The notes: a model not told the origin generated them from the letters alone. A DNA stretch of 64,000 bases from an uncultured Thermoplasmata archaeon (GCA_964394465.1 CAYMXS010000007.1:7086-71085), one strand, 5' to 3'; shown: positions 5,834 through 60,323, counted from the stretch's first letter. Numbers and translations are program-made.

Positions 5834-5859
5834 TCAAAAGGAACGTAAAAGGAAGTGAG

Positions 5860-31305: not shown

Positions 31306-32712
31306 CTAGTGTTGATGTCCTCCTTGCCCATGGGTGCGTGAATGGGAGTGAAGGTTTTTAAAAGCCCTATCCACGACTTCACTCAGAGATGGATGTATGT
31401 GCATGCCACGATAGATGGGGACGAAACTCTGTGTGTTGGTATACATCAGGTTTATTATCTCGTGGATCAGCACCGAGGCCTGTGGCCCCACTATATGTGC
31501 CCCTAGAATCCTGTGGGTTCGTTTATCCACTATTACTTTCACGAAGTAGTCCTCTATATCCATGGCCGAGGCCTTTGCCGTGCTCTCGAAGGGAGCATAG
31601 CCAACCAAGATGTCGTACTTTTCTTCTGCTTCCTCCTCGGTCATACCGACGGAAGCCACCTCAGGATATGTAAAGACAGCATGTGGAACCGCATGGTAGT
31701 CCGCTTCTACCGTCTCATCGGTGAAGGCATTCTGATAGACCACTTGAGCTTCATAGTTGGCCACATGCTTGAACATGTGTTCTCCCGTGGCGTCTCCCAA
31801 GGCGTATATACCGCTCTTCGTGGTCCCCAATGTTTTATCTACCTTTATCCATCCTTTATCGGTCGTTTCCACTCCACTTTTCTCCGGCTCTAGTAGATCC
31901 GCGTTCGAACGTCTCCCCGCTGCGATAAGGATCTCCTGGGAATCGACCGTTGCTTTTTTCCCTTCTTTGTTCCTAGCGATCAATCTTTTCTTGCCACCTT
32001 TTTTTTCTGCCTTTACAACCTCATATCCAGTATGTATATCCATACTTTCAGACAGCTTGTTCTTCAGAACCGTAGAGACCGCTTTCTCCTCTGACGGTAC
32101 GAACTGTGTATTCCTGCCTATTATGGTCACATCAGCCCCCATCATGGAGAGGAAATAACCGTACTCCGCCGCGATATAACCCCCACCTATTATGGAAACG
32201 CTAGTAGGAAGATATTCTAGATCCAGTATGGTCTTGCTGGTAAGATAACCTACATCCTCTATATTCTCTATGGGGGGTATCCCGATTCTTGAGCCTATCC
32301 CCAGTATTATCTTGTCTCCTTTTATGGTCTCTCCTCCCACCTTCATGGTATAGTCATCGACGAACTGTGCCGTATCCTGATAGAAATCTAGATCATCGGT
32401 ATCGTTTAGATTTTGACCTATCTGTTTACTCTCTGGCCTGACGTGATTCCTCATCCTCTCCATGACGTACTGAAAATCTATATCTTCTATCTCCGAGTCG
32501 ATGCCGAACCTTCCCGAATCCTTTATAGTGTTAACCACCTCAGCTGGATACAGCAGCATCTTGGAAGGGATACAGCCCCTCGTCAAGCAGATTCCACCGG
32601 GGGCCTCGTTCTCTATAACCGCTATGTCCAAAGAGGGCTCTTCCTGGAGCACTTGAGTCACGATGCTCATGGCAGAGCCTGTACCTATCGATATAACATC
32701 ATATTCTTTCAT
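31306..32712 (-). CDS. lpd: Dihydrolipoyl dehydrogenase (class I pyridine nucleotide-disulfide oxidoreductase), likely the L-protein partner of the divergently transcribed gcvT.
   Basis: FAD-binding GxGxxG (ISIGTGSAM), redox disulfide GGICLTRGCIPSK, NAD-binding GGGYIAAE, and C-terminal HIHPSLSE dimerisation/His-Glu motif. Confidence 0.7.
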   Translation of the reverse strand: MKEYDVISIGTGSAMSIVTQVLQEEPSLDIAVIENEAPGGICLTRGCIPSKMLLYPAEVVNTIKDSGRFGIDSEIEDIDFQYVMERMRNHVRPESKQIGQNLNDTDDLDFYQDTAQFVDDYTMKVGGETIKGDKIILGIGSRIGIPPIENIEDVGYLTSKTILDLEYLPTSVSIIGGGYIAAEYGYFLSMMGADVTIIGRNTQFVPSEEKAVSTVLKNKLSESMDIHTGYEVVKAEKKGGKKRLIARNKEGKKATVDSQEILIAAGRRSNADLLEPEKSGVETTDKGWIKVDKTLGTTKSGIYALGDATGEHMFKHVANYEAQVVYQNAFTDETVEADYHAVPHAVFTYPEVASVGMTEEEAEEKYDILVGYAPFESTAKASAMDIEDYFVKVIVDKRTHRILGAHIVGPQASVLIHEIINLMYTNTQSFVPIYRGMHIHPSLSEVVDRAFKNLHSHSRTHGQGGHQH

Positions 32713-37910: not shown

Positions 37911-37997
37911 ATCGTTCTGCCCTATTTATATATTATGCCCTCGTCCTAGAAAACAAGGGGACGGGTAAGAGAATAAATATATATAATCTATAACTAT

Positions 37998-38549
37998 GTG
38001 ATAAGGGAGGAGAATGATATAATGTACGAAGCATTAGATGAATTGAGTCTCAAAGAGCTGATTGGCTATTCCATAAGGTCCGAGAAGAAGGCCAACAAGT
38101 TCTACAACCAGATAGCCGATGAACTCCCGGAACTCATGTCAAATCGGTTCAAGAGCCTGGCTGATGACGAAGAGATGCACAAAAGGCATCTACTGAAACT
38201 CCACAAGAAATTGTTCGGCGATACAGATTACGTGGTCCCGGAAAAGGAAGGACTGCCCCCTCACGAGGGAGATGTGAAGTTGGATTCAGTATCGAACCTT
38301 TTGGAATCGTTGGATAAGGCCATGGATAACGAAAGAAACGCCTACAGGATATACAAGTATCTAGCCGAGAACCATGAGGAACATCAGAACCTGTTCGAGT
38401 ATCTAGCTATCATGGAGCACGGCCATCTTGAGTCTCTGAAGAAGGAGAAGGAGATGCTAGAGGGAAGGGTGACCAGCAGACCAGATGCTAGGAACCAGGC
38501 ACCCGATAGTTTCTTCAGTTTCGAATTCGAGAAAAGACAGACCCAGTGA
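37998..38549 (+). CDS. Ferritin-like diiron-carboxylate protein (rubrerythrin-like four-helix bundle), paralog 1 of 4.
   Basis: E...E-x2-H...E...E-x2-H ligand pattern (SEK..; DDEEMH; ENERNAYRIY; MEHGHLE). Conserved C-terminal tail SFFSFEFEKRQTQ. Start may be the Met at 38022 (MYEALDEL). Confidence 0.6.
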   Translation: MIREENDIMYEALDELSLKELIGYSIRSEKKANKFYNQIADELPELMSNRFKSLADDEEMHKRHLLKLHKKLFGDTDYVVPEKEGLPPHEGDVKLDSVSNLLESLDKAMDNERNAYRIYKYLAENHEEHQNLFEYLAIMEHGHLESLKKEKEMLEGRVTSRPDARNQAPDSFFSFEFEKRQTQ

Positions 38550-38681
38550 TATAACTGGACAAGACCTTCATCAAAAACTTTTATCCCTCTTTTTAACTTT
38601 TTGCCCTGTAGATTGATTATGAAGATGATACATAAGTATTTATAATCTGACTCACATATCCATAAATTGGAGGGATGAAAT

Positions 38682-39212
38682 ATGTATGAAGCTTTAGATA
38701 GATTGAGTCTAAAGGAGATAATCGGATACTGTATAGAATCGGAAAAGAACACCGCCCAGATCTACAGGAAGATCTCTAAAGACCTTCCTGAACTGATGTC
38801 CAACAGATTCAAGAGCTTGGCCGATGATGAAGACCTGCAGAGAGAACAGTTACTAAAGATCCATAAAATATTATTTGGAGACAAGAAGTACGTGGTCCCC
38901 AAAAAGGAAGGCCTGCCCCGACTCCAGAGTGATGTTACCTCGAAATCGGTCGGTAACCTTTTGGACGCTCTAGCCAAGGCGATCGATCATGAAAACAACG
39001 TGTACAAGGTCTACAAGTATATATCGGAGAACCACGAGGAACAAAAAGACCTGTTCGAGTATCTAGCAATGATGGAGCACGGCCATCTCGAGTCGCTGAA
39101 GAAGGAGAAGGAGATGCTGGAGGGAAAGGTGTCAGGTGCTAAATCCGGGACAGAAGATCGTGATTCCGAGACACTACTCACTTTTTCCTTTGAGAAAAGA
39201 CAGACCCAATGA
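38682..39212 (+). CDS. Ferritin-like diiron protein, paralog 2.
   Basis: About 60% identical to paralog 1. GGAGG Shine-Dalgarno-like sequence. Conserved upstream box aagtatttataatct. C-terminal TFSFEKRQTQ. Confidence 0.6.
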   Translation: MYEALDRLSLKEIIGYCIESEKNTAQIYRKISKDLPELMSNRFKSLADDEDLQREQLLKIHKILFGDKKYVVPKKEGLPRLQSDVTSKSVGNLLDALAKAIDHENNVYKVYKYISENHEEQKDLFEYLAMMEHGHLESLKKEKEMLEGKVSGAKSGTEDRDSETLLTFSFEKRQTQ

Positions 39213-39321
39213 GGATCCTAAGTATACAAAGCCAAAGATACAAAGTTCAATCCACCTCAATGCTTGATAAATAAGTATTTATAATCTAAGTATCATATGA
39301 CTATTAGGGAAGAGATGAGAT

Positions 39322-39846
39322 ATGAACAGATCGTTTGAGAAATTGAGTCTCAAGGAGTTGATAGGCTATTCAATAGAGGCCGAAAAGAATACTAGAGATA
39401 TATACACTCAGATATCCAAAAGTCTTCCTGAACTGATGTCCAACAGGTTCAAGAGTCTGGCGGATGAGGAAGATATGCACAGACAGCAGTTACTCAAGAT
39501 GTATGAAAAACTGTTTGGTGATAGAGAATATATGGTTCAACTTGACGATATGCCGGCCCTTGAGAGCGAAGTCACGTCGAAGTCAATCGGTGACCTGTTG
39601 GAGGCTCTAGGTACGGCAATCGAGAACGAGAAGAATTCGTACCAGTTATATAAGCATGCGTCGAAACGCTACAAAAAGCATAGAATCTATTTCGAGTATC
39701 TAGCGGTGATGGAGCACGGTCATCTCGAGTCCTTGATGAAGGAGAAGAAATTGATAGAGGGCGAGATCGTCAGCCGTTCTAGGGCCATGGAGAGGACACC
39801 AGAATCCTTCTTCAACTTCGAGTTCGAGAAAAGACAGATACAGTGA
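39322..39846 (+). CDS. Ferritin-like diiron protein, paralog 3.
   Basis: Same architecture. Upstream box aagtatttataatct. C-terminal SFFNFEFEKRQIQ. Confidence 0.6.
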   Translation: MNRSFEKLSLKELIGYSIEAEKNTRDIYTQISKSLPELMSNRFKSLADEEDMHRQQLLKMYEKLFGDREYMVQLDDMPALESEVTSKSIGDLLEALGTAIENEKNSYQLYKHASKRYKKHRIYFEYLAVMEHGHLESLMKEKKLIEGEIVSRSRAMERTPESFFNFEFEKRQIQ

Positions 39847-39917
39847 TCAGATATATAAATAGAAAAGATAAGATGATGCAGGCCGCTCAGCCTACATCTT
39901 TTGTTTTTTTTGACCTT

Positions 39918-40718
39918 TTATTCTTCATCAGGATTTTTCAGACCTTGTTCCTCTTCTGCTGATAGCGGTTGCTGCTCTTTTGGAGGCGGTCTGTACTGCT
40001 GTTGCTGTTGATGTCTGCCTTCACTTTCTTCTTCACTCTTCAGCACCTTCAGTAGAACCACCACTATTATCACTATTATCACGATGGGCACGATTATCGC
40101 GAGAGCCAGCAGGATCATGCTCCCCGCCCATATACTCTGGAAGATCGCTTCGTCGCTGACATCGGATCCCGAACCAGACCCGGTACCGGATCCCCCACTG
40201 CTCCCTGAGCTCGTTTCAGTCCAGGAGTAAAGGTAGTCTACGGACCCCCCTCCGCTCTGTAAGTCCGAGTGCACGCAGTAGGCCCAAAAGTAGAAGTCGT
40301 CCATATTTGAGAAGACCGAATCGGGGATACTCATATCGAGTGTACCACCCGAGATCGAGAATTCCGAAATGCCGGCGTTGGTCGCCTGACCGGAATAATC
40401 AACCCAATTCGCTTCTCCGTCCGAATAGGCAATCCATACGTTCTGATTCTCCGATTTCATCTCCGTTATATATATCCAATATCCGTATTCGTTGTACTCG
40501 TCGTGGTCCTTTATCTCTCCCGAGACATCTATAGTGAAGACGATCTCATCACCGGATTTCCTCGAAGAGACCTTGGTTATATCCACGTCGGGATTGGTCA
40601 CGTCATTAGCTACATCGTTTACAGTTTTGGTAAAATCGATGGCAGATACCGTCCCAGAGATAGCTAGTAGTATTATCGCTATTACAGCTACTGAGGCTAA
40701 CAGTCTTTTCTCGTTCAA
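39918..40718 (-). CDS. Type-I membrane or surface protein: signal peptide, extracellular domain, Gly/Ser linker, C-terminal TM and Q/P-rich tail.
   Basis: MNEKRLLASVAVIAIILLAISGTVSA signal. GSSGGSGTGSGSGS linker. C-terminal TM AGSMILLALAIIVPIVIIVIIVVVLL. Confidence 0.45.
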   Translation of the reverse strand: MNEKRLLASVAVIAIILLAISGTVSAIDFTKTVNDVANDVTNPDVDITKVSSRKSGDEIVFTIDVSGEIKDHDEYNEYGYWIYITEMKSENQNVWIAYSDGEANWVDYSGQATNAGISEFSISGGTLDMSIPDSVFSNMDDFYFWAYCVHSDLQSGGGSVDYLYSWTETSSGSSGGSGTGSGSGSDVSDEAIFQSIWAGSMILLALAIIVPIVIIVIIVVVLLKVLKSEEESEGRHQQQQQYRPPPKEQQPLSAEEEQGLKNPDEE

Positions 40719-40837
40719 TATTTCACCCGGTTACCTATCAGATTTGAAGTATATAGAATTATCTATCCTTTTTGTGAAAATATCAAAGGGGTATGTTGTC
40801 ACGAAAATGTTTAATATTCTACTGAACGTGAAGAGTA

Positions 40838-41383
40838 TTGAAGAACATGTATAAGCATCTAGAGAACTTCAGTTTGAAGGAACTGATAGGGTACTCTATA
40901 GAATCTGAAGAGGCCTCGGCTAGGTTCTACAGCGATTTCGCTGAAACCTCGGTAGAGGAGATAATGAAAGAGCGTTTCAAGAGCCTTGCTAGGGATGAGA
41001 GGATACATAAAAAGGCACTCCTAGATATCCATGAAAAGGAGTTCGGGACCAGGGATTATACGATACCGGAATCTGAGGGACTTCCACCTCACGAGAGTTC
41101 CCATGATTTCGATGACGTAGTCAATCTGATAGATACCTTGGAGAAGGCCATGGAAAACGAGCGCAACGCCTTTAGGATCTATCAGTACCTGGCAAAGAGA
41201 TATGACGACCACAGGCCCATATTTCAATACCTAGCTATCATGGAGAAAGGTCACTACGAATCCATCAAGGCAGAGAGAGATATGCTGGAGGACGAGACCA
41301 TAGAGAGTACGGAACTGGATGAGAAGTCCATCTCGAACCTCTGGGCCGAACATCCCCTGTGCAGTAGAGCCGATAAAGATTAG
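40838..41383 (+). CDS. Ferritin-like diiron protein, divergent paralog 4, lacking the conserved C-terminal tail.
   Basis: Same E/H ligand pattern (ESEE; RDERIH; ENERNAFRIY; MEKGHYES). About 45% identical to paralogs 1-3. Different C-terminus and different promoter region. Confidence 0.55.
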   Translation: MKNMYKHLENFSLKELIGYSIESEEASARFYSDFAETSVEEIMKERFKSLARDERIHKKALLDIHEKEFGTRDYTIPESEGLPPHESSHDFDDVVNLIDTLEKAMENERNAFRIYQYLAKRYDDHRPIFQYLAIMEKGHYESIKAERDMLEDETIESTELDEKSISNLWAEHPLCSRADKD

Positions 41384-44825: not shown

Positions 44826-47800
44826 TTAGTAGTTCAGTTTTATACTCTTCTTCTGGAAGTAGAGTCCTATTCCAATTATGGAAACGACACCTACTAGTAT
44901 CAGCAGATACATCTTAAGGGAGTTCAGCCGGGCATCTTTTTCTCCAGACGTCAAGATATCGAGCCCTTCCTCCTCTTCCGTATCCTGTTTTTCAGGCCAT
45001 CTAGAACTGACCGCTTTGTCCTGGTATACCGTGTCCTGTTCATTGGTAGAGACCTGCTCTTCAACCGTAACATCGTCTATATACCATCCTCTGTAGTCGT
45101 TGTCGTAATCGTCTACCGAGTCGAATATGAACTTGACTTGTATGGTTTGACCAGCATAACCGGAGATATCGATCGTTTCTTTCACGAAGTTGTTCTCAGA
45201 GCCAACGTTGTCGTCACTCGTATCTCTGTAGTAGACCTGGTCACCATTCACCGTTACCTTACACCAGTCGTATTCACCTTCGTGATCTTCAGTCTTGAAC
45301 CAGTGTTCGAAGCTCAAAGTAGCTCCTGAGACACCGTTAAGATCTATTGTCGGTGATGTCAATATCCCGGTCGTGTGTGAACCTGTGTCGTAGTTTCCCG
45401 TGGAATCCTGGCCGTACCACATCGCCTTGGAACCGCTGCTGCTGTCTCCGTACTGATCGCTATCTTGCGTTAGATGCCACAGGCCGCTCGTGTTCCATGG
45501 GTTACCATTTTCGAAGTCTTCGTAGAATATTGTATCACTACTGCCGCCTCCATCGACGACCTGTGGGTCCGGTTGACTCACGATCCAGTCTTCAACGGTG
45601 TCTGTATCCTCCGAAGTATCTTCTCTTCTGATGACCTCTCCTGTAGAAGCCGATAGTTCACTCCAAGCATCTTGTTCCCAGCCCACTTCATCGACCGTCT
45701 GACCGTCTGTATCGTACAGTGTGAGTGTATCCCCGCCGTTGTTCAGTGAAAGGGGCAGGTCCCAAGCATCTGGAGTTTTACCATATTCACTCTCGAAGGT
45801 GTCTTTGTCCCTGCAGACAGTAAGATGAGTGCCTCCAGGTATCGAGATAGAGTCGTCGAAGGAGTAACTCGAGGACGAATCGTCCTTTATACTCCATCCC
45901 GAAAGCTCAACTGGATCTGAACCAGGGTTGAACAGCTCGATGTATTCCCCCTCTGAATCTGTACCTTCCACGTCGTAATATACCTCGGAAAGCAGTACTG
46001 TTTCAGAGGAAGGAGCGCTTCCTTCGTCGGCTTTCACACTCACATCGTCCACGTACCACCCTCGGTAGGCGTTATCATAATCGTCAAGGGTATCGAAACA
46101 GAACTTTATATTCACCGTTTGGCCAGCGTACTCTGATATATCTATCGTCTCTTTGACAAAGTTGTTTTCCGATCCGACGTTCTCGTCCGAGGTGTCTCTG
46201 AAGTACACCTTTTCGTCGTTTATCTTCACCTTTACATGGTCATAGCTGTCTTCATGGTCCTCCGTCTTGAACCAGTGCCTGAAGGAAAGTTCAGCTTGAG
46301 AAGCCTGAGTCATATCTATGGACTCGGAGACGAGTTGGCCCTTGGTTCTAGAGCCGGTGTCGTAGTCACCTGTCGAGTCCTGCCCATACCACATCGAGTG
46401 AGATGAACTGTAACTGTCACCGTACTGGTCGGATTCATCCACTCTATGCCACAGTCCGCTTGTGCTCCAGCCTGAAGAACTCTCGAAGTCATCCTCAAAT
46501 ATAGTGGTCATTTCTTCTCCATCTTCGCTTACATCTATCGTTTTAGATACTGTATCCGTGGCTCCATCGTCGTCCTCAACGGACAAAGAAACGGTGTAGG
46601 TACCAGGGGAGCCGTAAGGATGGCTTGGATCCTGCTGACTTGAAGTCGTGCCATCACCGAAGTCCCATGAGTAGGAAGCGATATCACCATCGTCGTCCGT
46701 GGAAGAATCGCTGAACTGTACAGTTTCACCTACGGTTGGACTAGCCGGTGAGAAGCTGAAGGAGGCAGAGGGTGCCGTGTTGCTCTCTCCGTCGGAATCG
46801 GCTTTGACCGTTATATCGTCAACGTACCAGCCCCTATAGGCGTTATCGTAATCGTCCACTGAATCGAATATGAACTTCAGCTCTACCGTCTGTCCTGTAA
46901 GAGCAGAAAGGTCGATGGTTTCCTTCACGAAGCTGTTCTCCGAACCGACGTTTTCATCCTTTGTGTTCCTGTAGTATACACGATTATTGTTCACCTTTAC
47001 TATCACCTTGTCGTACTCCCCTTCATCGCAGTTCTCAGTCTTGAACCAATGCTCGAAGGAAAGTTCAGCTTGAGAAGCCTGAGTCAGATCTATGCATGGA
47101 GAAGTGAGCTGGCCAGTCGTATGCGAACCTGTATCGTAGTTCCCTGTTGAATCCTGCCCATACCACATGGAGTGAGATGAACTGTAACTGTCACCGTACT
47201 GGTCGGATTCATCCACTCTATGCCAGAGTCCGCTGGTGCTCCAGGCTGAATCCCCTTCAAAATCCTCGTCTAATAATGTGTTGAGGTCTCCTCCACTGCC
47301 GCTCACGTCTACTGTTTTAGAGATAGAGTCCGAAGCGCCTTCGTTATCCGTCACGATCAACTCAACCGTGTAGGTTCCAGAAGAGGAGTAAGTGTGATAG
47401 GGACTTTCTTCTGTAGAACTTGAACCGTCTCCGAAGTACCATGAGTAGGAAGCGATGCTTCCGTCACTGTCTGAGGAACTATCGGTGAACTGTATGGCTT
47501 CTCCCTCGGTTGGATCCGCAGGAGTAAAGCTGAAGTCCGCCGTCGGTGCTTCATTCTGCTCCTCATCTTCTCCTATCGTAACGGTGTAATCCTCTGTTTC
47601 ACCGTACTCCTGGTTCGAAGTCGGATCGGTATGATAACCATCGTATTCCTGCATCACTCTCATCCTTGTCTCTCCGTTTGAAGCGTCGCTTGGGACCGTT
47701 ATGTCCTTCGTAACCGTTAATGGCTCACTGTTACCGTTTCCGACCTCTACAACTGTATCATCGCTAAGATCAAAGTTCTGGCCCCAGTCTATGACCGCTG

Positions 47801-50800
47801 TTACATACTCTGAATAACCACCGGTGCTTAGGGTGACAGACAACTCGTAGGATTGGCCGGGTGCACATGTCTCGGACACACTTCCTGTATGATCTGCGTA
47901 TCCTCCATCGTCACCGGAGTCTTTGTTGATCCCGTTGAAGTTTACGTTCGTTATATATTCATCATAACTAGTATCTCCACCTTCAACGGTGCTGTATCCC
48001 TGAGTGTCGGATTGAACCGAGATATCCTGAGTCTTTGAGTCCGTCGCTCCGTCGTCATCGGTTACGGTCAACTCTACCGTATAGGTGCCCGAAGAGGAAT
48101 AAGTGTGAGATGGACTCGCTTCCGTTGAACTTGAACCGTCTCCGAAGTTCCATGAGTAAGAGCTTATGCTACCGTCTAAGTCCTCCGAGGTATCGGTGAA
48201 CTGTATCGTTTCTCCAGAAGTCGGCTCGGTAGGATCATAGCTGAAGTCAGCCGTGGGTACCGTGTTCTCCTCACTGCTCTGGACTGTTATGTTCTTTGTA
48301 GTAGTGTCCGTCGCCCCTTCGTTATCCGTTACGGTCAACTCTACCGTGTAAGTTCCGGATGAGGAATAACTGTGTGCTGGGTCAGCTTGCGTTGAAGTCG
48401 AACTGTCACCGAAGTTCCAGTTCCATGAAACAATATCGTTCTCAGGCGTTGAACCGTCCTGGAATTGAACCGTATCTTCAGTGGTAGGGTTTGAAGGCGT
48501 GTAATCGAAGCTCGCCGTCGGTCCCTCGTCATCTGACCCTGTAGTCGAGAATGAGAAACTGTAATCTTCTCCCATGGTGTTCCCGACCTGGTCGCTTATG
48601 CTTCCTGAAACAGTAACTTGATAATCCGTATCGGACTGTAACCTGTCGTCCTTCATCTGATAGGCGAAACATGTGTCATAGCCGTCCAGATCGTTCCATT
48701 TATCGTTCTCTGGATCATATTGTGACAGATATCCTTTGTCGTAGCTATTGTCCGTCAGGCTCAACCTGTAACGATCTTCCTCGCTACCAGCGTCTTCCAT
48801 GCTGCATCTTATCCCGTACTGGGCTCCAGCGTCCACTTGGATAGGATCTTCAAGGTTCAAGCTTATCCAAGAGGCTTCTTCTGAACCGGTACCGACATCG
48901 GAAGGTTCGATATATTTAGTCATTAAAGCCTGACCTTCTGGTGCCCCATCTATCAATTGAACCTTTAGATCCTCTGGGGGATTTCCTAACTTGAACATAT
49001 TGAGCTTTAAGGAGCTTATCTCACCGCTGGTCTGAGGCTCGAAACCCTGGACGCACACGTATCCCTTGTAACAGGAAGCGGCATAATCTCCATCCTGGTA
49101 GTTCCCGTCGGTGTACAGTGGCACATCCATCTTCGAACTGTTCTGATCCAGTAGGAGGCCATGTCCAACATCGGGAGTTATATCTATAGTAGAACCGTCA
49201 ACGGTCGAAGTGTCTATGTTCTCCGAGAAATCCACCGTTATTCTTTCTGTGTCTATGGGAACGCTCTGTTCGTTGTCGAAGGGCTCGGTAGAAGTAACTT
49301 GAGGCGATTCCGCGTCAACATGAGCTGAATCCGTCTTCAACTGTGAACTCCCGTCTCCAACGTTATCATCTTCGTAGTAAACTGTTATCGTATCGCCGTG
49401 TGATATTATCAAATCATTAACACCCGATTTCGAGATGTCTATAGACCCTGTGAACTTCCCGGGACTATCATCGCTTTCGGAGAGTTGCACCGTTTCGTTT
49501 GAACCCTCTGTATCGCTGTATATATCAACGTTCTGACTACCAGTACCGGCTACATCTGAATCGAATAATTCTATCTGGACGGTATCCTGAGCGGGATAAA
49601 CGTCTTTGTTAAGCGTTATCTCGCCGTCGGAGCCTTCATCACCGGTGAATTCGACTTCTACTGTACTAGGGATCGTGGATGGGACGTCAGGTGAATTCTC
49701 TGATTCGAAGGTCGGCGCCCCGATCTCGTAACCAGAATCGTAATACTCTACATCGAAAGAGGATATGGTGGTCTCACCGGAGCTCTGCCCCATCTCGAGG
49801 TAGAAGTTCGTTTCTCCCTGACCCTCGTTCCAATCGTCTGCGAACTTGGTCATATCTACAGCCATGAAATCTGGATAGGGATGATCTCCGCCGTCGGAAG
49901 AGTATAATGGATCTCTAGATTCGACTGGGTTATTCGATGGACCTATACCCACTTCAGTACTGGCCGTTCTACTACCCGTCTCTGAGAACCCCCACGTGCC
50001 GAGTAGCTTTGGATGTTCCTGCTCTCCCTCGTAATAGGGGTCTATTAAACGATAGGCCGATTTGTATCCCCCTACGATCTCTCCGAAGCAGTCGTATGTC
50101 ATCCAATAGGTACCGTCATCGTTAGGTCCCCAGTAGGAGCCCCAGGAGTTGGCTACCTTGAACGCGCCGGTCTCACCGTCCTGAGATATGGAATCGTTGT
50201 ATCCCACTATAGTGTTCACGTGGTTGGTCTCATTCTCCACGTACTCCTCGCTTGTCATCACGTTATCGTCTCCGAAATAGCCGAACGCATCTTCATACTC
50301 GTTGGCATCCAAAGCGAGATTGACCAGGTGTTCGTCCTGGAGCCATGTTTTGACCACGTCGACTGAAGAAGTGGATTCGAAGTCACCCGTTCTGAACTGA
50401 GGCGCGCATCTCCAGGCGTCCTCATCGCCCCATGCTGTGACGTTGCTGGCATCATATGGCATAGTTTCAAGGTTCGCACAGCCCAGATCATCTAAAACGT
50501 CTGAAAGCGAATATATGTGGGAGCCTCCGTCCTCACCGCCGTTTACCTTGTTGTAGGCCCAGGCCGGGCTCATAAGGTACTCTTCGTTCCCTGTAGAGGC
50601 GTTTAAGCCGTGTGCTTTTGCCTGCAGAAACGTGTTGGAGTAATATACTATACCCCATGCGGCACAGGAACCCTGCTGTCCCTGATTACCTATGGGTGGG
50701 AAATATTTCCTCTCTGTTAGATCCAGATCGCTATCGGAAAGTATCTGGTCTGTAGGCCCCTTCACGTCTTCGACCACTTTCATGTCGTCGGCCATATCTT

Positions 50801-51086
50801 CGTACGTCTCTTCTGATGGGGGTGCGTAACCGGTTCCGTGGCCGTTGATTATCTCGTTGTAGTCCTTTCCAGTTTCTTTAACACCGAGTTCTGCTTTCAT
50901 CCTCTTCATCTCCGAGGCGCTCAGTTCTCTGGAAACGAACGTGATCTTCTCATCCGCTCTGGTTTTCCCTTTATCATTCACACCCAGACCGTGCTCTATA
51001 TCCTTTATCGCTATCGTCAGACCAGCACTGATCAGTAGGACCGCTACGAAAAGTGCCGCCAATCTGTAGTATCTCTTATCTATCAT
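44826..51086 (-). CDS. Giant acidic cell-surface protein (2086 aa): signal peptide, papain-like C1 cysteine peptidase domain, a ~470-aa uncharacterized region, 3 PKD domains alternating with 3 copies of an unassigned ~165-aa jelly-roll-like repeat, a lamin-tail domain, and a C-terminal TM anchor.
   Basis: C1 motifs QGQQGSCAAWG (Cys), HVNTIVGY (His), NSWGSYWG (Asn). PKD signature WNFGDSS...HSYSSSGTYTVELTVTD. Repeat signature GLWHRVDESDQYGDS..MWYGQDSTGNYDTG...HWFKTE...YRGWYVDD. LTD region EVYYDVEGTDSEGEYIELFNPGSDPVELSGWSI. Starts 19 bp after the stop of the upstream 1011-aa gene, so likely co-transcribed with it. Confidence 0.6.
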   Translation of the reverse strand: MIDKRYYRLAALFVAVLLISAGLTIAIKDIEHGLGVNDKGKTRADEKITFVSRELSASEMKRMKAELGVKETGKDYNEIINGHGTGYAPPSEETYEDMADDMKVVEDVKGPTDQILSDSDLDLTERKYFPPIGNQGQQGSCAAWGIVYYSNTFLQAKAHGLNASTGNEEYLMSPAWAYNKVNGGEDGGSHIYSLSDVLDDLGCANLETMPYDASNVTAWGDEDAWRCAPQFRTGDFESTSSVDVVKTWLQDEHLVNLALDANEYEDAFGYFGDDNVMTSEEYVENETNHVNTIVGYNDSISQDGETGAFKVANSWGSYWGPNDDGTYWMTYDCFGEIVGGYKSAYRLIDPYYEGEQEHPKLLGTWGFSETGSRTASTEVGIGPSNNPVESRDPLYSSDGGDHPYPDFMAVDMTKFADDWNEGQGETNFYLEMGQSSGETTISSFDVEYYDSGYEIGAPTFESENSPDVPSTIPSTVEVEFTGDEGSDGEITLNKDVYPAQDTVQIELFDSDVAGTGSQNVDIYSDTEGSNETVQLSESDDSPGKFTGSIDISKSGVNDLIISHGDTITVYYEDDNVGDGSSQLKTDSAHVDAESPQVTSTEPFDNEQSVPIDTERITVDFSENIDTSTVDGSTIDITPDVGHGLLLDQNSSKMDVPLYTDGNYQDGDYAASCYKGYVCVQGFEPQTSGEISSLKLNMFKLGNPPEDLKVQLIDGAPEGQALMTKYIEPSDVGTGSEEASWISLNLEDPIQVDAGAQYGIRCSMEDAGSEEDRYRLSLTDNSYDKGYLSQYDPENDKWNDLDGYDTCFAYQMKDDRLQSDTDYQVTVSGSISDQVGNTMGEDYSFSFSTTGSDDEGPTASFDYTPSNPTTEDTVQFQDGSTPENDIVSWNWNFGDSSTSTQADPAHSYSSSGTYTVELTVTDNEGATDTTTKNITVQSSEENTVPTADFSYDPTEPTSGETIQFTDTSEDLDGSISSYSWNFGDGSSSTEASPSHTYSSSGTYTVELTVTDDDGATDSKTQDISVQSDTQGYSTVEGGDTSYDEYITNVNFNGINKDSGDDGGYADHTGSVSETCAPGQSYELSVTLSTGGYSEYVTAVIDWGQNFDLSDDTVVEVGNGNSEPLTVTKDITVPSDASNGETRMRVMQEYDGYHTDPTSNQEYGETEDYTVTIGEDEEQNEAPTADFSFTPADPTEGEAIQFTDSSSDSDGSIASYSWYFGDGSSSTEESPYHTYSSSGTYTVELIVTDNEGASDSISKTVDVSGSGGDLNTLLDEDFEGDSAWSTSGLWHRVDESDQYGDSYSSSHSMWYGQDSTGNYDTGSHTTGQLTSPCIDLTQASQAELSFEHWFKTENCDEGEYDKVIVKVNNNRVYYRNTKDENVGSENSFVKETIDLSALTGQTVELKFIFDSVDDYDNAYRGWYVDDITVKADSDGESNTAPSASFSFSPASPTVGETVQFSDSSTDDDGDIASYSWDFGDGTTSSQQDPSHPYGSPGTYTVSLSVEDDDGATDTVSKTIDVSEDGEEMTTIFEDDFESSSGWSTSGLWHRVDESDQYGDSYSSSHSMWYGQDSTGDYDTGSRTKGQLVSESIDMTQASQAELSFRHWFKTEDHEDSYDHVKVKINDEKVYFRDTSDENVGSENNFVKETIDISEYAGQTVNIKFCFDTLDDYDNAYRGWYVDDVSVKADEGSAPSSETVLLSEVYYDVEGTDSEGEYIELFNPGSDPVELSGWSIKDDSSSSYSFDDSISIPGGTHLTVCRDKDTFESEYGKTPDAWDLPLSLNNGGDTLTLYDTDGQTVDEVGWEQDAWSELSASTGEVIRREDTSEDTDTVEDWIVSQPDPQVVDGGGSSDTIFYEDFENGNPWNTSGLWHLTQDSDQYGDSSSGSKAMWYGQDSTGNYDTGSHTTGILTSPTIDLNGVSGATLSFEHWFKTEDHEGEYDWCKVTVNGDQVYYRDTSDDNVGSENNFVKETIDISGYAGQTIQVKFIFDSVDDYDNDYRGWYIDDVTVEEQVSTNEQDTVYQDKAVSSRWPEKQDTEEEEGLDILTSGEKDARLNSLKMYLLILVGVVSIIGIGLYFQKKSIKLNY

Positions 51087-51105
51087 CTTCGTTCTCTCCT
51101 TTTAT

Positions 51106-54100
51106 TTATCTCCTTTTTGTTTTGGTCTCATCTCGTTCTTTTTTTCTGCTTCTAAGTGAGTAGACACCTCCGCCTACAAGACAGAAAGATGTGCATACTA
51201 GTAAGAAAATGGTTTTCAGGCCCACTCCGGTCAACATGTTCGGAGCGAGCGAGCTACTCTCTTCGTTCTCTTTCGTTGCTTCTCCTCGCGTTGGAGCGTT
51301 TTCATAGGAAGCGCCACCGAAATCCTCAGCAGCCTCTGAGGTACTTGTGACCTGACCGGCGTCGGCCTTGACCTCTATATCGTCCACGTACCAGCCCCGA
51401 TAACCGTTGTCATAATCGTCTATGGAATCGAAGATGAACTTGATCGTAACCGTTTGACCGGTATAAGAGGACAAGTCTATGGTCTCCTTCACGAAATCAT
51501 CTTCTGAACCAACGTTGTCGTCACTCGTGTCTCTGTAGTAGACCTGTTCTCCGTTGACCGTCACCTTGACCTGGTCGAATTCATCGTCGTAATCTTCGGT
51601 TCTAAACCAGTGTGAGAAGCTCAACTCTGCCTGCGCTGCCTCTAACAGGTCGATAGTCGGAAGAGTAAGAACCCCTCTAGTATGTGAACCGGTATCGTAA
51701 GTTCCCGTGGAATCCTGACCGTACCATATAGCGTTTGATCCATCGTTGGCGTCTCCGTACTGGTCGTTCTCATCCACTGTATGCCATAGACCAGTTGTAC
51801 TGTATCCCGAGGGATCGCCTTCGAAGCCCTGCGTGTATATTGAATTTAGACCGTCATTACCACCGTCATCGTTATCATCATCATCCCCGTCACCTTCTGA
51901 CCCACTGGAAACTTTCACATCGTCTACATACCAACCGCGATAGTCATTGTTGTAATCGTCTATGGAATCGAAGGTGAACTCGATCTCTACCGTTTGACCC
52001 GCATAAGATGAGATATCGATGGTCTCTTCGACGAAGTTGTCTTCTGAGCCAACATCATCGTCTGTCGTGTCTCTGTAATACACCTTCTCTCCGTTCACCG
52101 TGACTTTCACCTTGTCATAGTTACCGTCGTCGTAGTTCTCCGTCTCGTACCAGTGCTGAAAGCTCAACGAAGCCTCAGCAGCAGAGCTCAGGTCTACCGA
52201 TTTGCTCAACGAACCGGTCGTATGTGAACCGGTATCGTAATCTCCTGAGGAATCCTGACCGTACCACATGGCGTTGGTTCCACTGCTGCTGTCTCCGTAC
52301 TGATCGTTTTCTGAAACGAGGTGCCATAATCCGTTGGTCGACCATGCTGATGATCCGTCCTCGAAATCCTCGTCTATCGTACTGGTTTCACCACCATCGT
52401 TTCCGCTGCTCACCGATACATCTCTCGTAGATGTGGATGAAGAACCGTCGTTATCTTCGACGGTCAGTGAAACAGTGTAAGTGCCTTCAGAATCAAAGTC
52501 GTGTGTAGGGTCCTGTTCGTTACTGTTGGTACCGTCGCCGAAGTCCCAGGACCACGAAGTTATAGAGCCATCTGGGTCAGAAGACACGTCGGTGAATTCT
52601 ACATTCAACTCGTTCACTTGATGCTCGAAGGAAGACTCAGGGCCTTCATTCTCGTCGTTTCCGCCTGACGATGTAGAAGTAACCTTCACATCGTCCATAT
52701 GCCAGTTATCCGACCATTCAGGGTCTCCGTCCGTCTGCCTGTACATTACCTTGAAGTCTGAATGGAACGCTTCTGAAGGCAGCTCTACATTCATCTGGAT
52801 GATCTCTCCTGCTGTTCCTCCGCCGGCATACGTTTTTAGGTGATCCCAGTTTCCTTCATTGTCTTTGTACGAAACGACCAGATCTTCTCCCTCGTCTGGA
52901 TTTTCACTGAAACTGTCCTTACCTCTGCGTATCCACGTTTTCAACCTTGCATCTTGAACTCCGTTGATATCTATAGTGGGGGAAACGACACTGGCGGTTC
53001 CACCGCAGGTGTAAAGCGAGTAGGAGCCAGAACCGGTACTCTCCGATCCATAATTCGAAGTGATGCCTGCATGACTTCCGTCGTTAGTGTTGGTAGACCA
53101 GTCGTTCAGTGAACCGTCTTCGAAGTCGTCCTCGAATATCGTCGTCGGGCCACCAATTACTTCTGCGTTCAGTTCGTAAGTCCCGTCGCCGCCGTCCGAA
53201 TGTACCATGATTATGTAAGTTCCGGCTTCCGGGTTATCTATAGTCAAGGATTCGTCTGTATCAGACCAGCCGTCGCTCTTTTTGTCATGGTCCGAAAGGG
53301 TCGGCTCCTCTCCTTTACTCACATAGAGATCGAAATCGGTGAACCACCCTCCGGAACCGTCCAAGTCTAAGGTCAGCTCGTCACGGGCCTGGTCTAACTC
53401 CAACGTGTAATACTGTCTATAATCGTCCTCTTTTAATTCCCCCGAGACTTCGTTCTGCGTGTTCAGTTCATGATAACCGTTATCTCCGTCCTGCATGTGC
53501 AGGAACGTGTACGTCTCGTCGTCACTCAGTTCCCAGTCAGCTCCGAAATTACATGACGAATGATAAGATATCTCGCCGTTACCCAGGTAAAGTGCGTTAT
53601 GCTGTATATGACCGTCTCCATTATGATCGTAAGCTATCACATCACCGACATGTAATTGATCTACACTTGAGACCTCTTCAGCATATCCTTCCTCTAAGAG
53701 AAAATCGACGAAGTTCTGAGCTCCGGGTTCTCCATATGTAGGCGGAACTCTTGAAGGAACGGGGATTCCTCCACCCTTCTGGTTTTCCTCGTCACCGACA
53801 CAGCATGAGATAAAATGCGTACAGTCCCATCCTCCCGAGACTTCCGTGCCTTGGTCCAGTTCTACGTAATCCGTCTGGGTCTCCCAGAAGTACCCATCGC
53901 TGGGTACCACGTCCCAGTACTCGTAGGCGTATTCATAGGCTGATCTACGGTCGTAGAAGGAAGCAGGTTCATCCATGAGTGAATCATCATCTGATGTTTT
54001 ATCCGAGCTGCCCGCTAGTTGTTCATGGCCTTCACCTATAGAGGCGAAACTGACCATGAACGCTGAGAACAGCAGGACCAGCACCACACCTACTCCTACC

Positions 54101-54141
54101 AACTTGACCCCTTTACTATCTTTATCTTCTTTTTTTATCAT
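51106..54141 (-). CDS. Giant surface protein (1011 aa): N-terminal TM, NlpC/P60-superfamily amidase-like (Amidase_6-like) Cys/His domain, PPC (pre-peptidase C-terminal) domain, 3 copies of the ~165-aa repeat (the first divergent), PKD domain, Asp-rich linker, C-terminal TM.
   Basis: Amidase-like SGGWDCTHFISCCV...GDVIAYDHNGDGHIQHNALYLG. PPC region DLYVSKGEEPTL...GTYIIMVHS. Repeats with GLWH..ENDQYGD..WYGQDS.G.YDTG. Confidence 0.55.
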   Translation of the reverse strand: MIKKEDKDSKGVKLVGVGVVLVLLFSAFMVSFASIGEGHEQLAGSSDKTSDDDSLMDEPASFYDRRSAYEYAYEYWDVVPSDGYFWETQTDYVELDQGTEVSGGWDCTHFISCCVGDEENQKGGGIPVPSRVPPTYGEPGAQNFVDFLLEEGYAEEVSSVDQLHVGDVIAYDHNGDGHIQHNALYLGNGEISYHSSCNFGADWELSDDETYTFLHMQDGDNGYHELNTQNEVSGELKEDDYRQYYTLELDQARDELTLDLDGSGGWFTDFDLYVSKGEEPTLSDHDKKSDGWSDTDESLTIDNPEAGTYIIMVHSDGGDGTYELNAEVIGGPTTIFEDDFEDGSLNDWSTNTNDGSHAGITSNYGSESTGSGSYSLYTCGGTASVVSPTIDINGVQDARLKTWIRRGKDSFSENPDEGEDLVVSYKDNEGNWDHLKTYAGGGTAGEIIQMNVELPSEAFHSDFKVMYRQTDGDPEWSDNWHMDDVKVTSTSSGGNDENEGPESSFEHQVNELNVEFTDVSSDPDGSITSWSWDFGDGTNSNEQDPTHDFDSEGTYTVSLTVEDNDGSSSTSTRDVSVSSGNDGGETSTIDEDFEDGSSAWSTNGLWHLVSENDQYGDSSSGTNAMWYGQDSSGDYDTGSHTTGSLSKSVDLSSAAEASLSFQHWYETENYDDGNYDKVKVTVNGEKVYYRDTTDDDVGSEDNFVEETIDISSYAGQTVEIEFTFDSIDDYNNDYRGWYVDDVKVSSGSEGDGDDDDNDDGGNDGLNSIYTQGFEGDPSGYSTTGLWHTVDENDQYGDANDGSNAIWYGQDSTGTYDTGSHTRGVLTLPTIDLLEAAQAELSFSHWFRTEDYDDEFDQVKVTVNGEQVYYRDTSDDNVGSEDDFVKETIDLSSYTGQTVTIKFIFDSIDDYDNGYRGWYVDDIEVKADAGQVTSTSEAAEDFGGASYENAPTRGEATKENEESSSLAPNMLTGVGLKTIFLLVCTSFCLVGGGVYSLRSRKKERDETKTKRR

Positions 54142-54211
54142 CTTTTTCCTCCTGATGAGATAGCTCTTTTCTTCTGTTTCCGGCTACCCCCTGCTTATAT
54201 AAAAAGAGAAT

Positions 54212-54244
54212 CCGCATATATGCAGGAATCTAGGGATTATGCGC
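54212..54244 (-). promoter_or_regulatory. Conserved palindromic element CCGCATATATGC-N12-ATTATGCG, about 70-100 bp upstream of the 1011-aa surface-protein gene; putative promoter (TATA-like ATATAT) or operator.
   Basis: Same element with identical 12-nt spacing at 59046-59077, upstream of the 1551-aa gene. The GCATATATGC core is a perfect palindrome. Confidence 0.45.
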
Positions 54245-54327
54245 ACCCGTCATCGGGACAAAATTTAGAACTCTAGACAAGTGCAAAAAAGGTGTAAAAA
54301 AGAGGGAGTTAACGGGTTTTTATCTAG

Positions 54328-59123: not shown

Positions 59124-60323
59124 CTAAACCCTATCTTCTGGCGTGAGTGCAGAGGCGTCTATGCCCGTATGTAATGTATGTCTAGGTCTTACTTTACAAA
59201 GCTGTAATTTCCTCGTTCTATCGTCGAACAGCATGGCAAGACCCCGTTTATACTCCATGTTGCCAACTATTTCATCTAAACTCTCTTTCATGTAGGACTG
59301 TTTCGCCGCTTTCAAGGCGTCCAGATCGTCTTTGGAAGTCAGATTATGCGCCAGGATGATGTCTGCCTGCCTGATAGCGCTTACATGCAGTGCGGAAGGT
59401 TCTTGAGTCGCTAGGATCAAGGAAAGACCGGGGTGCCTTCCAAGTTTGATCCAGTCTATCAAAGAAGGCGTAGCAAGGGTTTCCTCTCCGGACGGGAGGA
59501 AGAGATGTGCCTCGTCTATCAGCATGTAGATTATGGGATATTCTTCCGTTATATCTTTTGTAGTTTCACTCTCTATCAGGCGTGACTGGGCCTGCATCTC
59601 TACAGTGGTGTAGAGTGTCCTTTTGGCCATCTGTTCTCTAGCGAATATCGAAACGATAAGGTTCCTCAAGGAGTACTTACCCACTCTGCCCAGGTATGAT
59701 ATGTCCAGAACGGTTATCTTACCGCTGACCGCAAACCCTTCCTGAAGACCGTCTTTAGAGAATATATCCAGTCTATCTATCATCCTGAACAGGTTCTTCA
59801 AAGACTCTTTTTTACCCTCGTCTTCACCGATCGTATCTATCTTCTTGTAAACATCCTGAAAAGAAAATTTCTTCTCTTCCTTGAGCTCGGAGATGACCTT
59901 GCTGAGCAGTGCCCCTATGGGTTCCGTCAGTTCAAGATCGAACAGCTTGAGCCACTCGTGGACCTCCACCTTATGTAGAGGCAGTTCTAACACGTCGTCA
60001 TGGAATATCTTTTCTCCGGACTTCTCCGTTTCTCTTAGAGCCGCTTTTGGGACCAAAATACGGACTTTATCTTCCCAGCTATCCGGTTCTATATCAAAGT
60101 CGTCCATCCTTTTCAGCTCATCGTATCTATCGTTCTCCTTCTTGAGGCTGTGGAAGACGGACATCGTGTCTACTAAAATCAAAGCTAGTCTGTCGGAGTG
60201 TTTCTCTTCGAGCTTAGCGAATTCCTCGGCTATGACTCCAAGGGTGTATGACTTCCCGGTGCCTCTTTTACCGACCACCAGCATACAGTGAGGAGAAACG
60301 ATATCGAGGTAGGTCTTACCCAT
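59124..60323 (-). CDS. HerA/FtsK-superfamily (DUF87-type) P-loop ATPase.
   Basis: Walker A VVGKRGTGKSYT and Walker B IYMLIDEAHLF; C-terminal LILATQEPSAL. No adjacent NurA gene. Confidence 0.5.
   Translation of the reverse strand: MGKTYLDIVSPHCMLVVGKRGTGKSYTLGVIAEEFAKLEEKHSDRLALILVDTMSVFHSLKKENDRYDELKRMDDFDIEPDSWEDKVRILVPKAALRETEKSGEKIFHDDVLELPLHKVEVHEWLKLFDLELTEPIGALLSKVISELKEEKKFSFQDVYKKIDTIGEDEGKKESLKNLFRMIDRLDIFSKDGLQEGFAVSGKITVLDISYLGRVGKYSLRNLIVSIFAREQMAKRTLYTTVEMQAQSRLIESETTKDITEEYPIIYMLIDEAHLFLPSGEETLATPSLIDWIKLGRHPGLSLILATQEPSALHVSAIRQADIILAHNLTSKDDLDALKAAKQSYMKESLDEIVGNMEYKRGLAMLFDDRTRKLQLCKVRPRHTLHTGIDASALTPEDRV

Follow-up and report, generated by a model that had tools for sequence, protein, structure and literature searches.

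Archaeoferritin-type diiron proteins and their C-terminal arm in a gene array of an uncultured Thermoplasmata archaeon

In the stretch of DNA that we have analysed (64,000 nucleotides from an uncultured Thermoplasmata archaeon, GCA_964394465.1 CAYMXS010000007.1:7086-71085, hereafter “the window”), four genes for ferritin-like proteins are located between positions 37,998 and 41,383. Three of the encoded proteins (paralogs 1-3) end with nearly the same tail, i.e. SFFSFEFEKRQTQ, TFSFEKRQTQ and SFFNFEFEKRQIQ, as a first-pass annotation of this DNA had rightly recorded, and paralog 4 is without the FEFEKRQ ending. The annotation took the tail for a cargo-loading peptide, as is known from ferritin-like cargo of encapsulin shells, or for a partner-binding motif; the locus raises the question of which family the four proteins belong to, and of what the shared C-terminus represents.

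The comparative analysis that is presented here places the four proteins, as new members, in a known and little-studied family, the archaeoferritins, and their expansion is a fairly ordinary one. The explanation that we favour, and regard as moderately probable, is that the locus is a lineage-specific archaeoferritin-type expansion, where the tail is the form that this clade has of a family-wide C-terminal arm, with a putative role in assembly.

Family assignment of the four paralogs

All four paralogs are encoded by open reading frames (ORFs) of the plus strand and match the Pfam family Rubrerythrin (PF02915; E-values 1e-13 to 1e-20), in accordance with the four same-strand ferritin-like genes that had been annotated; profile matches, Foldseek matches and the AlphaFold2 model agree on a diiron four-helix bundle of the ferritin-like/rubrerythrin family. 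As to the subfamily, for which the first-pass annotation had considered rubrerythrin, a ferritin-like family or a family of unassigned function, all four proteins belong to the archaeoferritin (AFR) branch of PF02915. The best-matching characterised protein is the AFR of Pyrococcus furiosus (PF1196; Ebrahimi et al. 2012, PMC3401498), which is of the same length class, carries the same motifs and is also without a rubredoxin domain; its identity is 43 % to paralog 1 (166 aa, E 2e-45), 44 % to paralog 4 (E 8e-43), 38 % to paralog 2 and 32 % to paralog 3. When the PF02915 paralogs of P. furiosus are scored with the profile of the family, AFR reaches 165 bits (E 4e-52), PF1190 reaches 81, PF1195 reaches 38 and the fourth paralog 31, and the AFR orthologs of Thermococcales are 38-43 % identical to paralogs 1 and 4. 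Since AFR is the top-scoring P. furiosus paralog and its Thermococcales orthologs behave alike, the window proteins are of the AFR type. An identity above 30 % to PF1196 delimits the AFR proteins in the original report (PMC3401498), and the four paralogs are found at 32-44 %.

The motifs that are described for AFR, i.e. E-x6-Y on helix A, ExxH on helix B, E-x6-Y on helix C and ExxH on helix D, without a rubredoxin domain (PMC3401498), recur in the alignment: E21, Y28, E50, E104, Y111, E132 and H135 are invariant columns of the family, and H53 is nearly invariant. The E/ExxH/E/ExxH ligand set that had been ascribed to all four proteins is complete in paralogs 1, 3 and 4, but not in paralog 2, where position 53 is occupied by Q (DDEDLQ, helix B); the same ExxQ is present in the ortholog P0006, which is 70 % identical to paralog 2. 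Each paralog contains 0-1 Cys and matches the PF02915 diiron domain as its sole domain, and the sequence of none of them holds a rubredoxin-like FeCys4 domain (two CxxC pairs).

The AlphaFold2 monomer model of paralog 1, built from an alignment of 41 sequences, consists of four long helices, with a mean predicted local distance difference test score (pLDDT) of 91.7 and a predicted template modelling score of 0.86. The nearest solved structure by profile comparison is 2FZF (PF1190; E 1e-21), followed by TM1526; in Foldseek, 2FZF is matched with a template modelling score of 0.75-0.83, a root-mean-square deviation of 2.2 A and 31 % identity, and further matches are bacterioferritins, ferritins and Dps-like proteins with scores of 0.5-0.65, where the classical ferritin/bacterioferritin types have 0.5-0.6 and 14-20 % identity. 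The Pfam family Ferritin (PF00210), whose classical members are preassembled 24-mers with an E-helix at the four-fold axes, is not matched by any of the four paralogs at E <= 0.1.

Three related groups are set apart from the window proteins by specific features. PF1190/2FZF, the closest solved structure, is of the same Pfam family and of similar size, but it represents a separate subfamily (about 30 % identity) with an invariant tail of its own, DWEMYSQMMH[IV]GP. Rubrerythrins in the strict sense, e.g. that of Desulfovibrio vulgaris (Rbr), share the PF02915 diiron four-helix bundle, and an oxidative-stress gene context is shared with distant relatives of the window proteins; the window proteins, however, are without the C-terminal FeCys4 domain and have a single invariant Glu on helix C, where rubrerythrins have an ExxE motif. 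The reported identity between AFR and D. vulgaris Rbr is 15 % (PMC3401498). Lastly, the best NCBIfam match is the N-terminal erythrin domain of MbfA (NF045676; E 1e-9 to 1e-12), a likeness that is confined to this domain: the match has 36-46 bits, against a cutoff of 450, and covers only positions 2-155 of the 318 of the profile, and neither is a VIT1 membrane domain present in the paralogs nor a VIT1 gene in the window. An identification as MbfA, i.e. the erythrin-VIT1 iron exporter, has been rejected.

The C-terminal arm

With the last ExxH as the anchor, an alignment of the C-termini of the family gives, for nearly every clade, the pattern ...[ND]-P-[DE]-phi-[KR]-x3-[PSL]-x2-phi-[FWY]..., followed by an ending that is specific to the clade, e.g. 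NLWAEHPL in paralog 4, EFWAYHKD in locus L014 and GIWKRLGL in locus L023. The likeness to AFR extends over the same region: the BLAST alignment of paralog 1 with AFR runs through the arm up to residue 170 of paralog 1 and pairs RPDARNQAPDSFFSFEFE with KPEYIEAPPTYISSQLE, i.e. the two arms are homologous. By these alignments, the tail of paralogs 1-3 is a local version of a family-wide C-terminal arm, and not an add-on that is peculiar to three paralogs. In the consulted passages of the AFR paper (PMC3401498), we have found no discussion of this arm.

The predicted structure divides the arm in three. In the model from an 18-sequence alignment, pLDDT is 80, 67 and 49 over residues 151-160, 161-170 and 171-175; with 41 sequences it becomes 91 (151-160), 72 (161-170) and below 50 (170-175), all for the monomer. 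In the model, the position of the linker on the bundle is predicted with confidence and that of the aromatic segment with moderate confidence, and the last 5-6 residues (KRQTQ) are free. The segment before the tail, which had been described as a low-complexity flexible linker, is not of low complexity; its prolines are conserved across the family, and its pLDDT is 91. A position of the tail within the globular fold, which the first-pass annotation had named as an argument against a docking peptide, is predicted for the connector (91) and to a lesser degree for the aromatic part (72), but not for the last six residues, which are unconstrained.

The tail is more conserved than its surroundings. 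Between paralogs 1-3, nucleotide identity is 31-50 % in the preceding segment and 56-76 % over the tail, and inside the tail there are synonymous differences (TTC/TTT twice, GAA/GAG and CAG/CAA); from this island of conservation, together with the synonymous differences, we conclude that the tail is under selection at the level of the protein. The opposite view, according to which recent gene conversion, or a DNA or RNA element at the 3' ends such as a terminator or a regulatory site, has kept the tail alike, finds some support in the EKRQ codons (GAG AAA AGA CAG), which are the same in the three paralogs, and in the tract of 91-96 % identity at helix D of paralogs 1 and 2, by which conversion would occur in the array. 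This view is largely refuted by the synonymous differences and by a comparison of codons, as 39 % of the invariant core residues also share their codons, and identical runs of four codons are found elsewhere, e.g. at FEYL; the motif is also kept in orthologs of other genomes that have different flanks, and the sequences downstream of the three genes differ, with oligo-T tracts after paralogs 1 and 3 but not after paralog 2. We therefore regard it as barely credible.

The same data bear on the cargo-loading peptide, by which paralogs 1-3 would be sent into an encapsulin (HK97-fold) shell from another part of the genome. In format, the paralogs are like the Family 1 encapsulin cargo of the ferritin-like protein (Flp)/rubrerythrin type, where a ferritin-like bundle also ends in a short conserved peptide; proteins of this type are established as cargo of Family 1 (Andreas & Giessen 2021, PMC8346489). 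For the family as a whole, the idea is not far-fetched: in P. furiosus, PF1190 is located 3 bp from the gene of a Flp-fusion encapsulin, and AFR is located in the same cluster, about 1.7 kb away and with three genes between; an EncFtn-like protein of 94 aa is, moreover, encoded 0.5 kb outside the window. However, Family 1 cargo has a C-terminal targeting peptide like SDGSLGIGSLKRS, and its shell gene is normally found within about 5 kb (PMC8346489), while the tails SFFSFEFEKRQTQ, TLLTFSFEKRQTQ and SFFNFEFEKRQIQ bear no resemblance to this consensus and contain no GSL/IGSL element. No Linocin_M18 (PF04454)/HK97-like ORF is present among the scanned ORFs of the window, which cover almost all of the 64 kb, and the PHROGs screen of those window ORFs that are without a Pfam match has returned no capsid-like protein; there is also no shell gene in the 10 kb beyond the left end of the window, or within about 8 kb in the loci of the tail-bearing clade, as far as their neighbours are annotated. 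In addition, the arm occurs throughout the family, with one part that the model packs confidently on the bundle, and the EncFtn-like gene has no adjoining shell, as is also the case in Thermococcus barophilus. On these grounds we consider the cargo-loading peptide highly improbable. The partner-binding motif has to be narrowed down instead: the connector and the aromatic part belong to the family-wide, partly packed arm, and such a motif is possible for the last few residues.

The EncFtn-like gene (L033:13690-13974, minus strand) lies on contig CAJOUI010000002.1 of MAG GCA_905333475.1, which the window matches, at a distance of about 0.5 kb from window position 1, on its left. Its product matches PF22277 with 34.9 bits (cutoff 27). 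The fusion encapsulin of P. furiosus has an N-terminal Flp domain, to which this product is 62 % identical; the product stops where the shell domain would begin and lacks a targeting peptide of the GSL type. A NosD/beta-helix protein and large ATPases with tetratricopeptide repeats are encoded next to it. The same shell-less gene is found in T. barophilus (L034:7573-7875), beside a PF1190-type gene; in both P. furiosus and T. barophilus, the PF1190-type gene thus directly adjoins one for an encapsulin or an EncFtn-like protein, and in Thermococcales PF1190 stands beside an EncFtn-like domain with or without the encapsulin shell. The invariant tail of the PF1190/2FZF subfamily that we have mentioned above occurs in Thermococcales (L031:8001-8525, L034:7001-7525 and L035:10782-11300), and its counterpart in a Methanobacteriota metagenome-assembled genome (MAG; L021:11352-11846) and in P0231 is YWPM[MV]HVG[GP]. 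We know of no described function for the PF1190-type tail.

Array layout, promoters and history

The features of the array are listed below, with the gene starts as corrected in our analysis.

37973-37989 (+): putative core promoter box of paralog 1 (ATAAATATATATAATCT, two mismatches to the 17-mer of paralogs 2 and 3); it starts 49 nt before the ATG at 38022, with the spacing of paralogs 2 and 3
38022-38549 (+): paralog 1, archaeoferritin-type diiron protein of 175 aa (PF02915, E 1.4e-20), with GGGAGG at 38005-38010
38472-38546 (+): C-terminal arm of paralog 1, residues 151-175, i.e. a Pro-containing connector, the aromatic SFFSFEFE and the free end KRQTQ, as delimited by the AlphaFold2 model and the family alignment
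38632-38648 (+): putative core promoter box of paralog 2 (exact 17-mer), 50 nt before the ATG at 38682, with GGAGGG at 38670-38675
38682-39212 (+): paralog 2, 176 aa, with the first ExxH changed to ExxQ (DDEDLQ) and the tail TLLTFSFEKRQTQ (PF02915, alignment)
39271-39287 (+): putative core promoter box of paralog 3 (exact 17-mer), 51 nt before the ATG at 39322
39322-39846 (+): paralog 3, 174 aa, with the complete ligand set and the tail SFFNFEFEKRQIQ (PF02915, alignment)
39918-40718 (-): membrane-anchored protein of 266 aa, not of the ferritin-like family and without a Pfam or PHROGs family
40803-40819 (+): BRE/TATA-like element of paralog 4 (gaaaatgTTTAATATTC), similar to the promoter of single-copy orthologs by comparison of upstream regions
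40847-41383 (+): paralog 4, 178 aa, with the complete ligand set and its own C-terminal arm (...SISNLWAEHPLCSRADKD; PF02915, E 9e-19)

Paralog 1 most likely starts at the ATG at 38022 and not at the GTG at 37998, because GGGAGG is located 11 nt upstream of this ATG and the resulting N-terminus, MYEALD, is that of paralog 2 and of the orthologs; the GTG is disfavoured because it is only 8 nt past the TATA-containing box. For paralog 4, the ATG at 40847 is the most likely start, as called in other assemblies, e.g. in locus L001. With these starts, the 174-183 aa given in the first-pass annotation become 174-178 aa, and the identity of about 60 % that it gave for paralogs 1-3 lies within the range that we find, 54-62 % overall and 53-67 % in the core. 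The protein of paralog 1 is identical to the database protein P0001, and that of paralog 3 to P0011, which is present on 7 contigs of several assemblies. Exact-sequence look-ups of P0001 and of window positions 61919-62824 have returned no entry, and the flank that is covered beyond the window is the left one.

The surface-protein gene that had been noticed between paralogs 3 and 4 is indeed there, on the opposite strand: the 266-aa protein has a hydrophobic N-terminal segment, a Ser/Gly-rich stretch, a C-terminal transmembrane segment and a Gln/Pro-rich end. Its homologs are encoded between the CBS and SHMT genes in loci L008, L010 and L018, a position from which we conclude that the gene has been relocated into the array.

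The box that was thought to be identical upstream of paralogs 2 and 3 is an exact 17-mer, ATAAGTATTTATAATCT, at 38632 and 39271, but it is also present before paralog 1 (37973, two mismatches), so that each tail-bearing copy has a promoter-like element of its own. In the 64 kb there are 3 matches to the 17-mer at <=3 mismatches, against 0.19 expected; the box starts 49-51 nt before the ATG of paralogs 1-3, and a related element, gaaaatgTTTAATATTCt, is located at 40803-40819 upstream of paralog 4. The upstream regions of the orthologs contain, at the same distance from the ATG, a purine-rich stretch that resembles the transcription factor B recognition element (BRE), and a TATA element (gaaaaggATTTAATAc); this agreement identifies the box as an ordinary archaeal core promoter that has been duplicated with the gene. 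By eye, the 17-mer contains no convincing palindrome or Fur-box-like operator, and we have discarded an operator of this kind in view of the ortholog comparison. The box reads as a BRE/TATA core promoter, and we have found no evidence of a dedicated regulatory site. The comparison of upstream regions suggests separate transcription of the copies from their own core promoters, and since no oligo-T tract follows paralog 2, some read-through from paralog 2 into paralog 3 is possible.

Members of the close subfamily are rare: among 5.8 billion proteins, a word-indexed search has returned 17 matches, and an exhaustive profile search of 1.84 billion cluster representatives has returned 12 at E <= 1e-30 and 104 at E <= 1e-10. 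The scan of the GTDB species genomes has yielded 25 loci, nearly all of them in MAGs of uncultured Thermoplasmata/Thermoplasmatota that come from samples of soda lakes and hypersaline sites (B1Sed10, CSSed, ‘Ca. Saliniplasma’, Great Salt Lake), and otherwise in one Bipolaricaulota MAG and a small number of further archaeal MAGs. The genomic position of the gene is conserved, in a slot of the form PyrRedox< GcvT> M42> PmbA/TldD< PmbA/TldD< FER> ... Dph6< CBS< SHMT> (arrowheads give the direction), that recurs with 1-2 copies in about 10-15 of 26 loci, depending on the flanking gene that is considered. The family is, in this sense, a syntenic core gene of an uncultured Thermoplasmata group from hypersaline and soda-lake samples, and one whose expansion can give arrays of several copies, among them a natural variant of the active site. 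A functional link with the divergent TldD/PmbA protease pair has been considered and rejected, as the same synteny is found in clades with different tails.

In the neighbour-joining tree of the core, paralogs 1-3 are monophyletic, inside a clade whose tails are of the E[KR]RQxQ type; a second clade unites paralog 4 with L014, L015, L019 and L020, and the second copies of L006, L007, L011 and L012 form a third. Orthologs of the individual paralogs are found in related genomes (P0002, 86 % identical to paralog 1; P0006, 70 % to paralog 2; P0009, 60 % to paralog 3), and the triplication is therefore older than the separation of these genomes. By the tree, a triplication specific to this lineage has given rise to paralogs 1-3, and paralog 4 is of older origin. 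A chimeric origin of P0008 from paralogs 4 and 1 is not supported, as its N-terminal half resembles paralog 1 (52 %) and paralog 4 (54 %) equally.

At window positions 38397-38472, which encode helix D, the nucleotide identity of paralogs 1 and 2 is 91-96 %, whereas it is about 62-80 % elsewhere; gene conversion between the two copies may have left a short tract here. In two further loci, L023:9968-10507 (a MAG labelled Thermococci) and L025:772-1290 (the Bipolaricaulota MAG), both from saline samples, the arms are nearly alike (GIWKRLGLQKI and GIWKNLGLEGF), which could reflect inter-domain transfer or a binning error.

Gene context and proposed function

The function of the paralogs can be approached through AFR and through the gene contexts of the relatives. 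In three Thermococcales loci, the AFR ortholog is followed, 4-11 nt on, by a Pyr_redox_2/PF1197-like_C flavoprotein gene (L031:11275-12913, L034:3354-5012 and L035:7001-8643). PF1197 itself we take to be the NAD(P)H:rubredoxin oxidoreductase of P. furiosus. The pair stands among genes for peroxiredoxin, flavodiiron protein, rubrerythrin, rubredoxin and superoxide reductase in the T. barophilus and Thermococcaceae loci, and in the Fur/Dps-like/encapsulin cluster in P. furiosus; such a conserved pairing may point to a dedicated redox partner for AFR in Thermococcales, and no equivalent of it has been seen in the Thermoplasmata loci. In the Methanobacteriota MAG (L021:8845-12400), two AhpC/TSA peroxiredoxin genes, two AFR-type genes and one PF1190-type gene are followed by a classical ferritin (PF00210), in a compact iron/peroxide cluster where both subfamilies occur; the gene pair of L011 and L013 comes after genes for a CMD/AhpD-like protein and an aldo-keto reductase. 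Taken together, the contexts of the relatives support a role in iron and oxidative-stress metabolism, where the physiological chemistry would be either iron storage, as in the AFR paper, or the reductant-driven reduction of peroxide or oxygen. The Pyr_redox gene of the window (31306-32712) has been rejected as the equivalent of the reductase: it is Lpd-like, is located beside GcvT, and is 25-28 % identical to PF1197 over half its length.

The second kind of chemistry is the basis of a different explanation, in which the tail would serve as a short linear motif for docking onto a partner from another part of the genome, e.g. rubredoxin or a PF1197-type NAD(P)H oxidoreductase, and the proteins would be rubredoxin-less, rubrerythrin-like peroxidases or oxidases and not iron stores. 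The arm is located where true rubrerythrins have their rubredoxin domain, and the last six residues are unconstrained in AlphaFold2 and yet nearly invariant in the three paralogs and their orthologs; the reductase gene behind the AFR orthologs of the three Thermococcales loci, two of which are near rubrerythrin, rubredoxin and superoxide reductase genes, and the peroxiredoxin or AhpD-like neighbours in L021 and L011 are in line with such a role. However, no PF1197-type reductase or rubredoxin has been found in the window or, to the extent of their annotation, in the related Thermoplasmata loci, the endings vary among clades that have the same neighbourhood, and the arm is kept between archaeal and bacterial MAGs (L023 and L025), which is a better fit to a self-contained role; AFR, for its part, has oxidised and stored iron without any partner (PMC3401498). 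We consider the docking onto a redox partner unlikely.

In the explanation that we favour, i.e. the lineage-specific archaeoferritin-type expansion, the family assignment, the ligand motifs, the synteny, the duplication history and the promoter-like boxes come from the comparisons above, and the iron chemistry is carried over from AFR. The apo-protein of AFR is monomeric and has ferroxidase activity, and when loaded with iron, it reversibly forms multimers of roughly 24 subunits, whose mineral core is ferritin-like (PMC3401498). By analogy, each window protein would bind two Fe at E21/E50/H53/E104/E132/H135, oxidise Fe(II) and assemble reversibly into ferritin-like multimers that hold a ferric mineral (PMC3401498), with the detoxification of Fe(II) and oxidants and the storage of iron as the outcome. 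An ancestral single gene between TldD/PmbA and Dph6 would have been triplicated together with its BRE/TATA promoter, and each copy would be transcribed on its own from a near-identical core promoter. In the family arm (...P-[DE]-x3-5-[AP]-P-x2-phi-phi-S-x-x-phi-E...), the connector would pack on the bundle, the aromatic segment would be a fifth element and the end would be free; our favoured guess, as yet unproven, for the role of the arm is a contact between subunits during assembly. Near-identical arms on three diverged paralogs would permit co-assembly, with paralog 2 (ExxQ) as a catalytically altered subunit. A comparable arrangement has been described for the bacterioferritin of Magnetospirillum, with two functionally distinct subunits (PMC6529640), and serves as an analogy in that the paralogs are adjacent and one of them has an altered catalytic or cofactor site; heteropolymeric ferritins and bacterioferritins differ in being preassembled 24-mers of the PF00210 family, and the co-assembly of the window proteins is putative.

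The likeness to AFR is accompanied by differences. AFR is a single-copy gene in P. furiosus, with the PF1197-type reductase gene 4 nt behind it, and is part of an iron/oxidative-stress cluster with Fur, a Dps-like protein and an encapsulin, whereas here four copies are found among housekeeping genes, with no reductase or Fur nearby; the KRQ(T/I)Q ending is clade-specific, paralog 2 is short of one His ligand, and the Thermoplasmata proteins are known from their sequences alone.

Several points weigh against the expansion with an assembly role. We know of no solved structure of AFR. Its iron-induced assembly has been reported for one protein by one laboratory, and PF1190/2FZF, the closest solved relative, is described as a dimer (PMC3401498), so that cage formation may not be general. 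The pairing of AFR with a PF1197-type reductase is at least as compatible with a redox enzyme, i.e. a peroxidase or oxidase that uses an external electron donor, as with storage. Within the arm, the alternating pattern phi-x-phi-E-[KR] resembles an amphipathic beta-strand more than the helix that is drawn at pLDDT 72, and an invariant, unstructured KRQ[TI]Q end is how a motif that is recognised in trans would be expected to appear. In a further explanation, which we consider doubtful, the free and nearly invariant end, [FL]-x-[FLI]-E-[KR]-R-Q-[TI]-Q-COOH, would be a clade-specific recognition motif on top of the ancestral arm, docking the three paralogs, as catalytically differentiated subunits of which one has an ExxQ site, into a mixed, iron-triggered assembly, or docking them onto a partner from elsewhere in the genome such as an electron donor or a shell. 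If this were true, the motif would be the first structural handle on the monomer-multimer switch of archaeoferritins.

For the favoured lineage-specific expansion, what the locus adds is a C-terminal arm whose conservation extends from Thermococcales to Thermoplasmata. Should iron-dependent assembly be under the control of this arm, the paralogs would be a convenient natural system for dissecting this control; otherwise, the locus is a routine paralog expansion of an iron/oxidative-stress protein. In the later literature on archaeoferritins, we have found only citations of the 2012 AFR paper.

Other genes of the window have been recorded in the course of the analysis. Three consecutive genes at 44826-58983 (minus strand) encode giant secreted or surface proteins of 2086, 1011 and 1551 aa, with PKD, InhA-like MAM, lamin-tail, GEVED and PPC domains and long internal repeats such as ...WHRVDESDQYGDSYSSSHSMWYGQDSTG.... 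At 60992-61837 (minus strand), a protein of 281 aa with a DAC (diadenylate cyclase) domain is encoded, adjoined by the genes of a HerA-like ATPase (59124-60323) and a tRNase Z-like metallo-beta-lactamase (61919-62824). Near the other end of the window, at 4562-7865, an acyl-CoA dehydrogenase gene is followed by those of the beta and alpha subunits of an electron transfer flavoprotein, the alpha subunit having an N-terminal 2x[4Fe-4S] ferredoxin domain, and the gene of a cation efflux transporter of the cation diffusion facilitator type (3319-4464) precedes them.

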